Assembly (NCBI GenBank): GCA_016192945.1
Contig: JACPTE010000034.1
Location: 956 to 64,955, forward strand
DNA length: 64,000 bases
Direction: 5' to 3'
Source: Candidatus Woesearchaeota archaeon
GTDB lineage: Archaea; Nanobdellota; Nanobdellia; Woesearchaeales; UBA10216
In this document: positions 21,723 through 32,398 of the stretch, piece by piece
Position numbering within the stretch: the stretch's first letter is position 1
Layout: each line of letters starts with the position of its first letter
The notes under the pieces: generated by a model
Databases searched by the model: none
Told to the model about the DNA's origin: nothing
What the model saw: only the letters and a program-made list of their open reading frames with translations
Program-made: the position numbers and the translations under genes

Positions 21723-21744
21723 TATCTAACAGCTCTGTTAGATA
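21723..21744. repeat. perfect palindrome TATCTAACAG-CT-CTGTTAGATA just downstream of the MFS gene stop
   Basis: 10-bp arms with 2-bp spacer; a second imperfect palindrome CCAGATTGGA-T-TCCAATCCGG lies at 21678..21698. Confidence 0.4.
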
Positions 21745-21766
21745 CCTTATTGGTAAAATCCGAGAA

Positions 21767-29105: not shown

Positions 29106-29113
29106 CTTTTTCG
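29106..29113. repeat. left 8-bp target-site duplication CTTTTTCG
   Basis: Identical octamer abuts the right TIR at 32391..32398. Confidence 0.65.
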
Positions 29114-29126
29114 TGGGCTGTTAAGT
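29114..29126. repeat. left terminal inverted repeat TGGGCTGTTAAGT
   Basis: Exact reverse complement of 32378..32390; GGGCTGTT core resembles IS26 IR GGCACTGTT. Confidence 0.7.
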
Positions 29127-29200
29127 TGTCTGGATATAGCGGGGCTTTATTCCGATAATTTAGTGGTCAAAAATCAATATTTTGATTGGAGGCTGGAAAG

Positions 29201-29323
29201 ATGAAAAATGACAAAGATTTAAATATACTCGGTAGTGATGAACCAATTGAAATGGTGAGAAGGAAACCGAAAAGGAGAAGAAAAATAAGAAGAGGATTGT
29301 TTGATGTTATTTTCAGATGGTAG
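29201..29323 (+). CDS. small basic protein (40 aa, MKNDKDLNILGSDEPIEMVRRKPKRRRKIRRGLFDVIFRW), hypothetical
   Basis: ATG preceded by GGAGG about 12 nt upstream; Arg/Lys-rich C-terminal half; lies just inside the left TIR; not in the ORF track (under 60 aa). Confidence 0.25.
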   Translation: MKNDKDLNILGSDEPIEMVRRKPKRRRKIRRGLFDVIFRW

Positions 29324-29329
29324 ATAAAC

Positions 29330-29863
29330 GTGAAAATTAACATCATTAAAGAATTTGAATATTATAAAGATTCTGTTAATGATGTTAGGTTGCTTCTTAA
29401 AACTAATTATGGTGTTATTTATGATGATTTTGATGAACCTTTTAATAAATTAATTCGGAAAGCAAAATATTCACGAATTTCGGGGAAAGATTTGTCAGAA
29501 ATTAAAGAATTATGTTTTGATTATTGGGAAAATTTGATTAAAGAAGTATCTTTCCCTATGAAAGATAGAATAAAATCCGTCAAAACTAAAAATCAAAGTT
29601 TTTTAGATATTTTGTTGAAAATTCAAGAAATTGAAAAAGATGTAGAAAAAAATCCTCACACTATTGAGGAATATCAACAGATATACGAAAATACGATAGA
29701 TTTAGCCTTAAAATTGAGTGATAGATTAGAAGTTGAGAAATTTCAAAATAAGCGGTATTGGCAAGGAATTTGGTTAAGTGGCTTAACAGGAACGATAATA
29801 GGGTTAATCATAGGATACCTTTTAAATATCTTAGTGATTATTCTTTCATCAATATACAGATGA
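29330..29863 (+). CDS. hypothetical protein with C-terminal TM anchor (element cargo)
   Basis: 177 aa, GTG start, very AT-rich codon usage, single C-terminal hydrophobic helix; no family recognised. Confidence 0.4.
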   Translation: MKINIIKEFEYYKDSVNDVRLLLKTNYGVIYDDFDEPFNKLIRKAKYSRISGKDLSEIKELCFDYWENLIKEVSFPMKDRIKSVKTKNQSFLDILLKIQEIEKDVEKNPHTIEEYQQIYENTIDLALKLSDRLEVEKFQNKRYWQGIWLSGLTGTIIGLIIGYLLNILVIILSSIYR

Positions 29864-30739
29864 CTTAATCAATCCTAACCATCTGTTTATTCCTGTTTCT
29901 ATTTTTACTCCTGCTAATTCGCAGGGCACTTTTCCTATTGTCGTATGACTTTCAATATAGTTGTGTTGTATTATTATTCCTTGCATCAGTATCGGCGCAC
30001 TCCACAGAGCTTTCAATCCTCTAAAGTCATCAACTCTGTCTTTTATTTTGCTAAATACTGTTTCTATCCTTACATTATGCTTTCCTGTTTTGCTGACATT
30101 GTTTACCCTGTGTTCAACTGTCAATGCTCCCTTTATTCCTATTTTGTTTGTGTAAAATAGTTTGTGCATTGCTTTTGGGTAGAATTGTGCAGCATCTGAC
30201 TGAATATATTTCAGCTTACCATACGCAGTCGTTCTCTTTAGGAAAATTATTGCTTCATTCACACTCTGATTTAGTGGTCTCTATAAGGTTGCGTTTATGT
30301 ATCGTGTTCTCCAATCAACAGAACACCAAAACTTATCCCCACCTTTCTTTTTTGTGTTGTAACCTCTTGGAATGTCTGTTTCATCAACATAAAGCTCCCC
30401 GCTTAATTCAGGCTTCAAAGTTTCTACAAACTTGGTTACTTTAAGGACATACTTTCTGCACCAATCCAAGACGCTTACGTGGCTTGTTTTGATGCCTTCA
30501 TGCCTTCTGTAGTGGTTTCTTACCTTTCGGCTTGAAAGGTTGCTGAAATACAAATCTATGGCTTTGGTTACTACTTGTTCGTTGTTCTTCATCTTCCAGA
30601 AGCCCAAATCCTGAATAAAGGTCTTTTTACATGGTTTGCATAGGTATATCTGTTGTTTGCCCCTATTTTGCGTTGGGCTTACTCCACGCTTTACGACCTT
30701 TGTGCCTTTGCACTTAGGACATTTTATTTGCATTTCCAT
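29849..30739 (-). pseudogene. IS6-family DDE transposase with N-terminal zinc finger, disrupted by a frameshift near 30262..30285
   Basis: N-terminal ORF 30281..30739 has CPKCKG...CKPCKK and DDE D1/D2 context (YVDETDIP...KFWCSVDWRTRYI, aligning with IS26 MDETYVKV...YRAVDSRGRTVDF). C-terminal ORF 29849..30262 continues in another frame (TTAYGKLKYIQSDAAQFYPKAM, aligning with INTDKAPAY). Confidence 0.7.
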
Positions 30740-30744
30740 AGCTA

Positions 30745-30851
30745 TTAGGTATCTAAAGAAGTATATGAATATTCAGATACCTAAAAGATACTAAACCAAA
30801 CTGCATTTTTAGATACCAAAATCTTTATATATTAGTTAGGTATCTAATAGG
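30745..30851. promoter_or_regulatory. array of four TAGGTATCTAA / TTAGATACC operator-like sites flanking the divergent transposase and abrB-like promoters
   Basis: Sites at 30745..30758 (TTAGGTATCTAAAG), 30774..30787 (CAGATACCTAAAAG), 30809..30821 (TTAGATACCAAAA), 30837..30851 (TTAGGTATCTAATAG). Pairs are inverted and bracket TATA-like boxes at about 30760..30768 (transposase) and 30824..30831 (abrB-like). Confidence 0.5.
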
Positions 30852-30854
30852 CTA

Positions 30855-31049
30855 ATGAGGCTTCTATCTCAAAAAAGCAGGGAATACAAAGGCAAAGCAT
30901 ATCACAAGTTCTGGATAGTAGTCCCCAGCAAGCTTTTGCATAAGTTGGGCTGGAAGGCTGGCGACCAATTGGAAGCAGAAGCAAAGAATAATAAACTCGT
31001 TATAACTAAAGAAGACAAAACAAGAGTAGAACTTGTAAAAGCAAAATAG
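30855..31049 (+). CDS. AbrB/SpoVT swapped-hairpin-like small DNA-binding protein (putative element regulator or antitoxin)
   Basis: 64 aa; KFWIVVPSKLLHKLGWKAGDQLEAEAKNNKLVITKED resembles AbrB/MazE-type looped-hinge-helix domains; leaderless, TATA 27 nt upstream. Confidence 0.45.
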   Translation: MRLLSQKSREYKGKAYHKFWIVVPSKLLHKLGWKAGDQLEAEAKNNKLVITKEDKTRVELVKAK

Positions 31050-31050
31050 A

Positions 31051-31314
31051 ATGGAACAAACCAAATTATCAAAATACAAGGTAAAGGATTTAATTGAAAG
31101 ACCAGAAAAAGTACTAGAAGACACAAATCCAGAAGAGTATAGATTATTAACCAACCCCTTACTATCAGAGCACGGAATAAAGAAAGAATTTCAATCATTT
31201 AAGACTAACATTCTTCTTGAAAAACTGTTAAATGACCAATATAGGACATTTTTACTGAGTTTATTTTTTTTAATTGTGGCTTTGGTGACACTATATTTTA
31301 CAATTAAAAAATAA
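31051..31314 (+). CDS. hypothetical small protein with C-terminal TM helix, translationally coupled to the abrB-like gene
   Basis: 87 aa; start 2 nt after the upstream stop; C-terminal hydrophobic helix FLLSLFFLIVALVTLYF. Confidence 0.35.
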   Translation: MEQTKLSKYKVKDLIERPEKVLEDTNPEEYRLLTNPLLSEHGIKKEFQSFKTNILLEKLLNDQYRTFLLSLFFLIVALVTLYFTIKK

Positions 31315-31322
31315 ATGATGTT

Positions 31323-31336
31323 GACTTAACAGCCCA
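31323..31336. repeat. internal third copy of the IR (GACTTAACAGCCCA), same orientation as the right TIR
   Basis: 14/14 identical to 32377..32390. Confidence 0.6.
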
Positions 31337-31412
31337 AAAAGTTGAGTTGAAGAACAGGACAAGATTTAGAATCAGAAAATGAAAGATGGGAAGTTGATTA
31401 TAGTAAGAGGGG

Positions 31413-32069
31413 TTGATATATATGCAGATAAAAGACCTTGTTACTAATAATAAGAAAAGCATCGTTTTTAACATGGACTTATTGGAGAAACCTTATTTGC
31501 AATACATCCAATTAGGAGGTCTGGCTGAGAAAATATTTAGTGATTACTGCCAAAAAAATGGGCTACAAGTTATAGGCATGGGCGAATTTGCCTACCGATT
31601 ACTTCTTTACGGTAGGAATAATGCTCCAAAGGGCGAATTTCCTTGGTACGATCGATATGGAAAAAGAACCTTTAAGAAAAAGAAAATCGACCAGTTTATG
31701 GCTATGTTTACCGAAGAGCAAATAAGATTTTTAGAAGAAAACCATCAATCGTTAGAGTATAGTATAAACAACAAAATCGTAGGTTTGCCTGATTTTTTTG
31801 TGTGGGATGATAATGGAAGGTTTGCATTTATAGAACTTAAATCTGGCTCCTCAACGCTTAGCACAAGACAAAGAAATGTTTTAAAGAAATTAACAGTCCT
31901 CTTCCCAGTATATGTTTGCCATATTTCTTGTGATGTTGTTCTTAAAGATTTACAAATAGAAAATATAGATTTTGGCTTTGTTTCTATTAACAAAGAATTT
32001 GAATTTGACAAGGGTGCTATAGTAGAGGAAAATTTATATGCACAAGCCCACAAAAGAGAAAATAGGTGA
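31413..32069 (+). CDS. VRR-NUC domain (PD-(D/E)XK) nuclease with unknown N-terminal domain
   Basis: GLPDFFVWDDNGRFAFIELKSGSSTLSTRQRNVLKKL matches the VRR-NUC pattern GxPD...hhhE.K....Ls..Q...h..L. Confidence 0.55.
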   Translation: MIYMQIKDLVTNNKKSIVFNMDLLEKPYLQYIQLGGLAEKIFSDYCQKNGLQVIGMGEFAYRLLLYGRNNAPKGEFPWYDRYGKRTFKKKKIDQFMAMFTEEQIRFLEENHQSLEYSINNKIVGLPDFFVWDDNGRFAFIELKSGSSTLSTRQRNVLKKLTVLFPVYVCHISCDVVLKDLQIENIDFGFVSINKEFEFDKGAIVEENLYAQAHKRENR

Positions 32070-32237
32070 TGCGGAGAGGATTGACATGAATGATTTGACC
32101 GAAATGAGCACAGATATTTTAGATGTAAGAATTAAAAAGTTTGAAGCTGATATTAAGAATGTTACACGAAGAGAAGATTGGGATTACTATTTTGACTTAC
32201 TTTGCTGGAAGGCACAACTTAAGAAGATGTTGATGTG

Positions 32238-32360
32238 ATGATAATGAAACCTCAATTTAAAGGGATGCCTAAATGTAGAAAATGTGGCGGGAACACTATG
32301 GCGGTATCTGGCACAAAAACAGAATGCCAAAGTTGCGGATTTGTTCAAAGTTTTGAATAA
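32238..32360 (+). CDS. small zinc-ribbon protein (40 aa, CRKCGG...CQSCG)
   Basis: ATG right after the upstream stop; two CxxC pairs; not in the ORF track (under 60 aa). The listed 32284..32661 ORF is in another frame and antisense to trpS. Confidence 0.3.
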   Translation: MIMKPQFKGMPKCRKCGGNTMAVSGTKTECQSCGFVQSFE

Positions 32361-32377
32361 AAAACAATATCCAATAG

Positions 32378-32390
32378 ACTTAACAGCCCA
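32378..32390. repeat. right terminal inverted repeat ACTTAACAGCCCA
   Basis: Reverse complement of 29114..29126, followed by the TSD. Confidence 0.7.
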
Positions 32391-32398
32391 CTTTTTCG
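32391..32398. repeat. right 8-bp target-site duplication CTTTTTCG
   Basis: Identical to 29106..29113; lies 3 nt from the trpS stop codon. Confidence 0.65.

Follow-up and report, generated by a model that had tools for sequence, protein, structure and literature searches.

What do four copies of one short palindrome do between a transposase gene and its divergent neighbour, and which protein reads them? The question is raised by a low-GC transposable element in the genome of a Candidatus Woesearchaeota archaeon (DPANN; GenBank assembly GCA_016192945.1, contig JACPTE010000034.1), in which the control spacer between a transposase gene and an abrB-like gene carries the 12-bp near-palindrome TTAGGTATCTAA, or a one-mismatch variant of it, four times within 115 bp. 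The window, in what follows, is the whole stretch of DNA analysed (64,000 nucleotides, positions 956 to 64,955 of the forward strand of the contig), and positions are counted from its first letter. Comparison with related elements suggests that the element's own AbrB-type protein probably binds the four sites, most likely silencing the transposase gene together with its own gene. This reading is built on the sites and their geometry, on their conservation, on their co-variation with the AbrB-like protein, and on terminal repeats that are free of the motif.

The spacer (30740-30854) separates the ATG of the transposase gene (30739, minus strand) from that of the abrB-like gene (30855, plus strand), and the layout of the sites relative to the two start codons is nearly mirror-symmetric. 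On the transposase side, site 1 (30745..30756, TTAGGTATCTAA) covers positions -6 to -17 from the transposase start, in the interval between TATA box and start codon; the TATA box (30762..30769, minus-strand sequence TTCATATA) has its centre 26.5 nt upstream of the ATG, and site 2 (30773..30784, TCAGATACCTAA, reverse orientation, one mismatch; -34 to -45) abuts the region of the transcription factor B recognition element (BRE) and TATA box of this promoter. On the abrB-like side, site 3 (30809..30820, TTAGATACCAAA, reverse orientation, one mismatch; -46 to -35 from the abrB-like start) abuts the corresponding BRE/TATA region, and is followed by the TATA box (30824..30831, plus strand, TTTATATA; centre 27.5 nt upstream of the ATG) and by site 4 (30836..30847, TTAGGTATCTAA; -19 to -8). 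Each TATA box is enclosed by one pair of sites, that of the transposase gene by sites 1 and 2 and that of the abrB-like gene by sites 3 and 4. In archaea the centre of the TATA box usually lies about 27 nt before the start, and as both boxes are found at this distance, leaderless mRNAs are predicted for the two genes. A degenerate fifth site (AAGATACTAAA, 30785..30795) lies in the central spacer, at a position where two relatives of the element (loci L004 and L008) have a full site, TAGATACCTA. A bacterial-type scan gave no sigma-70 promoter or terminator in the spacer, its model being irrelevant to an archaeal host; Rfam gave no match, and ARAGORN found no tRNA in the window.

The clustering of the motif in the spacer was far above chance. 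GGTATCTAA occurred four times in the window against 0.23 expected, a number reached in none of 100 shuffles (0/100), and three of the four occurrences were in the spacer. When up to one mismatch was allowed, TAGGTATCT occurred 15 times against 8.6 expected, with four of the occurrences falling within about 100 bp in the spacer. A single 11/12 match to the operator, TTAGATACCTTA, was seen outside the element at 21737-21748, adjoining a short palindrome (TCTAACAG-CT-CTGTTAGA), which is roughly what chance would give. Folded as DNA, the region gave a z of -2.5 relative to shuffles, and each TATA box can be enclosed in a hairpin or cruciform formed by its pair of sites. An earlier sequence-only reading of the window had pointed out the four motif copies and had placed the TATA boxes between pairs of them, and both were found as described. 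It had put the spacings at 28-35 bp; the measured centre-to-centre distances were 28, 36 and 27 bp. Two further suggestions did not survive comparison with relatives: spacing is set by the need to bracket a TATA box, at 25-33 bp in the family as a whole, and not by a phasing of about three helical turns, and the division into an inverted and an everted pair loses its meaning where each site is a palindromic, putative dimer site and orientation varies between elements (L004, L008, L017).

Relatives were collected in a scan of one genome per species, which gave 55 loci encoding related transposases (45-70% identity among near-complete matches); 15 elements at 57-70% identity to the window transposase by tblastn were compared in detail. 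In an alignment of these 15 spacers (A1), the four sites and both TATA boxes were kept at fixed positions, and the columns matching the transposase TATA box of the window were invariant or nearly so; the conservation that the sequence-only reading had named as its own test was thereby borne out. In a second alignment (A3), restricted to the six elements of the GGTATC class (including L056, the closest relative, whose transposase is intact), sites 1 and 4 were identical at 12/12 positions while the flanking bases drift. Site 1 was invariant in 6/6 of these elements, as was site 4, and a site at the position equivalent to site 1 is found family-wide. In a broader search, 34 of 46 loci had a pair of 10-mers (at most one mismatch) around a TATA-like box, about 50 nt or less from the transposase start, compared to 0.7% in shuffled controls. 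A site located after the transposase TATA box and before the start codon was present in nearly every element, including those with a different gene order. In nine loci the AbrB-like gene is in a 'tandem' arrangement, sharing the strand of the transposase, and in several of them (L028, L030, L050 and L053) the transposase TATA box is still bracketed and a further site precedes the regulator gene. A sub-family (L031, L033 and relatives) has three sites and is without site 4, downstream of the abrB TATA box. Comparison of the tandem and three-site layouts thus identifies the bracketed transposase TATA box as the universal feature.

While the positions were conserved, the sequence of the sites differed from class to class. 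Five classes were distinguished: class A (TTAGGTATCTAA, GGTATC) in the window, L001, L004, L008, L017 and L056; class B (TTAGGTACCTAA) in L002 and L007; class C (TTCGGTACCGAA) in L003, L005, L010, L014 and L015; class D (TTGGGTACCCAA) in L006 and L019; and class E (TTAGG(A/T)(A/T)CCTAA) in L011 and L012. Together with the types found in elements with tandem regulators (GGTGCCC, GG(C/A)ACCC, CAGGTACATG and TCGGT(A/T)ACCGA), at least nine site types were recognized, the others being GGTATC, GGAACC, and GGTACC with TTAGG, TTCGG or TTGGG flanks. Most classes are perfect palindromes, and positions 3 and 10 of the palindrome vary symmetrically (TTAGG..CCTAA, TTCGG..CCGAA, TTGGG..CCCAA), as would be expected of recognition by a symmetric dimer. 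The TATA-proximal halves of sites 2 and 3 showed a tendency to CCGAAA(A/G), which probably reflects overlap with the BRE.

Which protein follows these changes was assessed in 16 elements of classes A-E, using pairwise protein identity to predict a shared operator class (area under the curve, AUC), since neighbour-joining trees of the AbrB-like proteins and transposases were too poorly resolved to be used alone. Identity of the AbrB-like proteins predicted operator class with an AUC of 0.95 over the full length and 0.97 over residues 1-25 (permutation p = 0.0005), compared to 0.66 for residue 26 to the end. For the transposases, the corresponding values were 0.58 for the full length and 0.49-0.51 for the first 48-70 alignment columns (the zinc-ribbon region), the coding region of which is as near to the operators on the DNA as is the AbrB gene. 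Merging of classes B and C left the result unchanged. An unsupervised Mantel test with orientation-free site distances gave a rho of 0.46 (p = 0.0008) for AbrB residues 1-25 and 0.11 (not significant) for the transposase N-terminus. Distances between AbrB-like proteins and between transposases were themselves uncorrelated (rho 0.06), indicating that the modules have been reshuffled and that the association of sites with the AbrB-like protein is not mere common descent. Two zinc-ribbon types were present among the transposases, each of them in operator classes A, C and E. In L010, L025 and L026 the AbrB gene is located 1.3-1.9 kb from the transposase start, with a NikA-like ribbon-helix-helix gene in the divergent slot, and the transposase TATA box is still flanked by sites typical of the AbrB type of these elements. 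The operators change between elements while the terminal repeats stay constant. As the sites track the AbrB-like protein and not the transposase, the AbrB-like protein is favoured as the binder, in agreement with what the sequence-only reading had proposed as most parsimonious. At the level of single residues, positions 8-9 of the protein read SR with TTAGG sites, SK with TTCGG and H(S/F) with TTGGG. A simple one-residue-to-one-base code was considered and rejected: residues 8-9 fit positions 3/10 in the divergent-type elements, but the tandem-type proteins all have DK and their operators differ.

The candidate regulator is a protein of 64 amino acids (aa) encoded at 30855..31049 on the plus strand, and would belong to the AbrB/MazE/SpoVT type. 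It scored 27.0 bits with Pfam PF04014 (gathering cut-off 24.7) and 25.9 bits with TIGR01439, just below the cut-off of 28.3; an identical protein, recorded in NCBI for a Candidatus Woesearchaeota archaeon, is named AbrB/MazE/SpoVT family protein. An AlphaFold2 monomer model (predicted local distance difference test score, pLDDT, 78) had the beta-beta-alpha-beta-beta order of the swapped-hairpin domain, while a Foldseek search with the same model gave no significant match, the N-domain of AbrB (1yfb) ranking fourth with E = 0.7. Searching PDB sequences with an AbrB profile returned only spurious G-patch and Mop matches. These negative results are put down partly to an interleaved dimer having been modelled as a monomer. 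A hidden Markov model scan showed that, of about 45 loci with upstream sequence, 36 have an AbrB-like gene within the element, and in 22 loci the gene was divergent and about 95-125 bp from the transposase start. Across the family these proteins have 53-65 aa, most of them 53 aa and without a C-terminal toxin-binding tail, and in compact elements the terminal repeat comes directly after the AbrB gene. In MazE and VapB2, the N-terminal strand and hairpin have been identified as the DNA-reading part by structural work (PMC4333400). MazE dimers bind palindromic operators, and the 47-bp mazEF operator consists of three dimer sites (PMC4333400).

By analogy, each 12-bp site in the spacer would bind one dimer of the 64-aa swapped-hairpin protein through its N-terminal strand and hairpin. 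From what is known of archaeal regulators, a protein bound between TATA box and start blocks the recruitment of RNA polymerase, and one bound over the BRE/TATA region blocks binding of the TATA-binding protein (TBP) and transcription factor B (TFB). Occupancy of sites 1 and 4, between TATA box and start point, would accordingly be predicted to have the former effect, and occupancy of sites 2 and 3, which abut or overlap the BRE/TATA regions, the latter. Given these positions, the protein would repress the transposase and, in four-site elements, itself. Such repression, with negative autoregulation, would keep transposition low in a cell already carrying the element and, more speculatively, might allow a burst of expression upon entry into a naive cell. 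The comparative evidence thus supports the operator architecture put forward by the sequence-only reading, while physical binding, dimer stoichiometry and repression as the effect are what we infer from it.

Several points weigh against this reading. The assignment of the fold hangs on a Pfam score barely over its threshold, with TIGR01439 below and the PDB and Foldseek searches negative. Operator classes were assigned by eye (although the unsupervised Mantel test agrees), and the 15-16 elements are phylogenetically non-independent. The transposases of L028 and L033 are mosaic (97% identical after residue 45 and 48% before), and their regulators and operators differ; those of L011 and L012 are likewise mosaic. 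In the L028/L033 case the first 45 residues of the transposase changed hands along with the regulator and the operators, so that the AbrB-like protein and the zinc ribbon are inseparable there. Sites 2 and 3 lie upstream of the BRE/TATA, a position also used by activators, and the three-site sub-family is without a site below the abrB TATA box, so that autorepression is not universal.

The last two points bear on the possibility that the AbrB-like protein binds the sites without being a simple repressor, acting as an activator from sites 2 and 3, as a dose-dependent switch, or as an architectural cofactor of transposition. Some archaeal regulators do activate from sites upstream of BRE/TATA, and sites 2 and 3 are found just there; the hairpins or cruciforms that the site pairs could form around each TATA box also count in favour of this possibility. 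Such an activity is nevertheless unlikely: what nearly all elements keep is a site that separates the transposase TATA box from the start codon, a typical position for blocking polymerase recruitment, and the sites are central in the element rather than at the ends, where a cofactor of the transpososome would be expected. Autoregulation by the transposase after the manner of InsA of IS1, with its N-terminal zinc ribbon or helix-turn-helix bound to the four sites and the AbrB-like gene an unrelated passenger, is quite improbable. Similarity in this N-terminal region does not predict operator class, the two zinc-ribbon types cut across classes, and the terminal repeats, which a transposase must recognise, are family-conserved and motif-free, even though the N-terminus is of the IS1/IS1595 zinc-binding type and was swapped along with the operators in the L028/L033 mosaic. 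For the same reason the sites were rejected as terminal or subterminal transposase-binding repeats, an alternative that the sequence-only reading had left standing together with internal inverted repeats: the true ends of the element are at 29113 and 32391, the repeats there (GTG(A/G)GCTGT(A/T)AAGT) are family-conserved and lack the motif, and the sites track the AbrB-like protein.

The AbrB-like protein could also be an antitoxin paired with the 87-aa membrane protein encoded downstream (orf87, 31051-31314), with the sites serving only as the operator of a toxin-antitoxin module. The Pfam family of the 64-aa protein is MazE_antitoxin, orf87 begins 1 nt past the AbrB stop codon, and toxin-antitoxin modules within Tn3-family transposition modules are known (PMC7157771). 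However, orf87 is unique to the lineage of the window, with no homologue in the 55 loci nor in L056, the closest relative; family members mostly have 53 aa, lack the tail that a toxin would bind and are directly followed by the terminal repeat in compact elements; and it is the transposase promoter, not that of abrB, around which two of the four sites are placed. This reading, which is very unlikely, was rejected for want of a conserved toxin partner. Hardly credible, finally, is the notion that the repeats are due to chance or form a purely structural DNA or RNA feature without a protein partner. The region is AT-rich and folds better than shuffles, but enrichment was strong, positions are conserved while the sequence changes class by class, and, with leaderless transcripts predicted, the sites lie upstream of where transcription would start and hence would not be in RNA. 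Rfam gave no match, and the comparative data effectively refute this notion.

If the AbrB-like protein is the repressor, the cassette might further act as an 'immunity' module of the insertion sequence (IS), in which the AbrB protein of a resident element would repress incoming elements of the same specificity in trans (copy-number control), selection for escape would give rise to many orthogonal specificities, and cassettes would recombine between transposase backbones. This extension is tentative and, on balance, rather doubtful. The exchange of cassettes would resemble that of the heteroimmune immunity regions of lambdoid phages. Four genomes contained two elements each (L003/L005, L043/L046, L026/L037 and L035/L040), with the same regulator/operator type in two genomes and different types in the other two; these pairs bear on the immunity idea, four being far too few to decide it.

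In bacteria, transposons that repress themselves through their own proteins are a classic theme (Tn3, IS1, Mu). Small element-encoded DNA-binding proteins, InsA of IS1 and OrfA of the IS3 family, lower transposase expression; their coding sequences form the upstream part of the transposase frame and their binding sites are the terminal repeats, whereas the elements described here have a separate, unrelated regulator gene, dedicated internal operators and motif-free terminal repeats. The closest working analogue is the resolvase system of Tn3, where TnpR binds several dimer sites at res, in the stretch that separates the divergent genes tnpR and tnpA, and represses both promoters (PMC7157771). 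Both systems comprise a transposon-encoded protein, multiple dimer sites (putative ones in the element) and a divergent transposase gene. TnpR is, however, a serine recombinase and res a recombination site, while the AbrB/MazE-type domain is non-catalytic, no recombinase domain having been found in family-model searches with the AbrB-like protein; here the promoters are of the archaeal TATA/BRE kind and the transposase is IS6-like rather than of the Tn3 family, and the resemblance is only in the mode of working. E. coli mazEF and AbrB-type autoregulators are alike in Pfam family, in palindromic operators and in having multiple dimer sites over a promoter, and the DNA-reading N-terminal hairpin of the mazEF antitoxin corresponds to the region that co-varies with the operators. 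They differ in that the family lacks a conserved toxin partner, that the operators would also control a second, divergent gene (the transposase), and that the system is part of an IS. Among archaeal proteins, Sso7c4 of Sulfolobus is a small AbrB-like swapped-hairpin dimer that binds DNA (PMC3159460). Neither it nor the plasmid-virus-encoded C68 of pSSVx, an AbrB-like protein reportedly binding its own promoter, is known to belong to an IS or to control a transposase. No description of this element family or of an AbrB-controlled IS was found in the literature, of which coverage was incomplete and did not extend to ISfinder; nor, within the same coverage, was any archaeal or IS6-type IS in which a dedicated transcription factor goes with a defined operator layout. 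DPANN archaea, in which the family is widespread, have very small genomes and are not yet genetically manipulable; how mobile DNA is kept in check in such genomes is a question to which the family offers a concrete answer that can be tested. The family also provides a natural series of very small (53-aa) putative repressors with matched 12-bp operators of differing specificity, which could serve to study how the AbrB fold, as yet poorly understood, recognises DNA, or could supply orthogonal archaeal promoter parts.

Most of the 55 loci were in DPANN archaea (Woese-, Pace-, Nano-, Nanohal- and Aenigmatarchaeota), eight records being labelled Methanosarcinales and a few only 'archaeon'. In 32 loci the transposase is flanked on each side by the terminal-repeat core ACTT(A/T)ACAGC(T/C)CA, the two copies being inverted; the tips of the elements, (G/A/T/C)TG(A/G)GCTGT(A/T)AAGT, are conserved across the family, and the operator motif is absent from these conserved terminal repeats. 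A perfect 6-bp target duplication was found in 28 of the 32 loci with both ends, and also at the outer ends of the window element (TTTTTC). The terminal repeats and duplications together identify a genuine family of transposable elements. Between the terminal repeats the elements measure 2.0-6.8 kb, with the exception of a 1421-bp element with a truncated transposase (L055); compact elements (1977-2265 bp) consist of the transposase, the regulator and at least one cargo gene. The cargo 3' of the transposase, up to the terminal repeat, is different in every element and includes membrane proteins and, in L028, a 353-aa enzyme-like protein; in this respect the family behaves as a cargo-carrying 'transporter IS'. 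In some loci (L037, L038 and L040; L010, L025 and L026; L009) the regulator slot beside the transposase holds a different small DNA-binding protein, accompanied by repeated palindromes of its own; among these alternative occupants are a zinc ribbon of 48 aa, a NikA-like ribbon-helix-helix protein (27.2 bits with Pfam PF21983), and a protein of 84 aa with a winged-helix protein after it.

The transposase (29849..30739, minus strand) combines an N-terminal zinc ribbon, matching the IS1/IS1595 zinc-binding domain, with an IS6-like DDE domain. With Pfam PF13610 (DDE_Tnp_IS240; gathering cut-off 27), the window protein, with its single in-frame TAG read as Tyr, scored 27.4 bits and the intact L004 protein 38.5. 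The best full-length match was NCBIfam NF033587 (IS6), which aligned over nearly the whole profile with 45.4 (window) and 60.0 (L004) bits, compared to a cut-off of 125; the IS1 model was next best (34-36 bits, cut-off 100). E--F---K-R is the catalytic-domain signature of the archaeal IS6-like group (Harmer & Hall clades a-d), members of which often lack GG tips (PMC6807381), and is present as ETVFSKIKDR in the window protein and conserved in its homologues. Members of the IS6 family are 700-900 bp long with a single open reading frame (ORF), 8-bp duplications and GG-starting repeats with an internal cTGTt, and one passenger-carrying member is known (PMC7986276). Like the archaeal IS6-like ISs, the present family has the DDE_Tnp_IS240 match, the E--F---K-R signature and cTGT(t) in the terminal repeat (CTGT(T), in tips that are not GG); unlike them, its elements are at least 2.0 kb long (bar L055) with at least three genes, duplicate 6 bp of the target, and have an added N-terminal zinc ribbon. 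The sequence-only reading took the element for a member of IS6; given the size, the duplication and an NCBIfam score far below cut-off, the likeness is only a distant one. By these sequence criteria the family is best placed as a distant, structurally different relative of archaeal IS6-like elements rather than a canonical IS6 member, and appears to be an undescribed branch near them, marked by ends that are conserved, target duplications of 6 bp, a regulator gene and a cargo slot of variable content.

The element in the window occupies 3279 bp (29113-32391) and forms a low-GC island (29-38% GC, compared to 45-52% in the flanks) bounded by 25-nt imperfect terminal inverted repeats, the left at 29113..29137 (plus strand, GTGGGCTGTTAAGTTGTCTGGATAT), preceded by the duplication TTTTTC (29107-29112), and the right, outer one at 32367..32391 (minus strand), followed by TTTTTC (32392-32397). 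An internal third copy of the terminal-repeat core (31324..31337, minus strand), with no target duplication beside it, closes a 2225-bp core element (29113-31337) of the standard size for the family, and is followed by a 1054-bp tail (31338-32391) with extra cargo. On the plus strand the core encodes, besides the AbrB-like gene, a 177-aa membrane-anchored protein (29330-29863) and orf87, whose membrane segment is C-terminal, and the tail a VRR-NUC nuclease (31413-32069) and two small ORFs (32038-32360), for a 66-aa protein and a 41-aa zinc-ribbon protein. The transposase gene is a single reading frame with its sole in-frame TAG (30281-30283) at the position of a Tyr conserved in homologues (INATL*RP compared to INATLYSP), which identifies it as a nonsense mutation; pyrrolysine insertion or read-through was rejected, as the codon takes the place of that Tyr (TAT/TAC to TAG). 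The same locus was assembled also from three other sequencing runs (SRR12113424, SRR12113425 and SRR12113431). The window copy is probably immobile, to judge from this codon, while its regulator gene is intact, and with a broken transposase the repression circuit is probably a relic here. At position 30767 the transposase TATA box of the window reads TTCATATA (G for A), while 14 of 14 aligned relatives have TTTATATA and the window alone deviates; like the TAG codon, the change points to decay of the unit that expresses the transposase. The contig of L056, the closest relative, has a PemK/MazF-type toxin gene, with a small gene upstream of it, just beyond the terminal repeat (contig positions 4746-5274), unrelated to the AbrB-like regulator.

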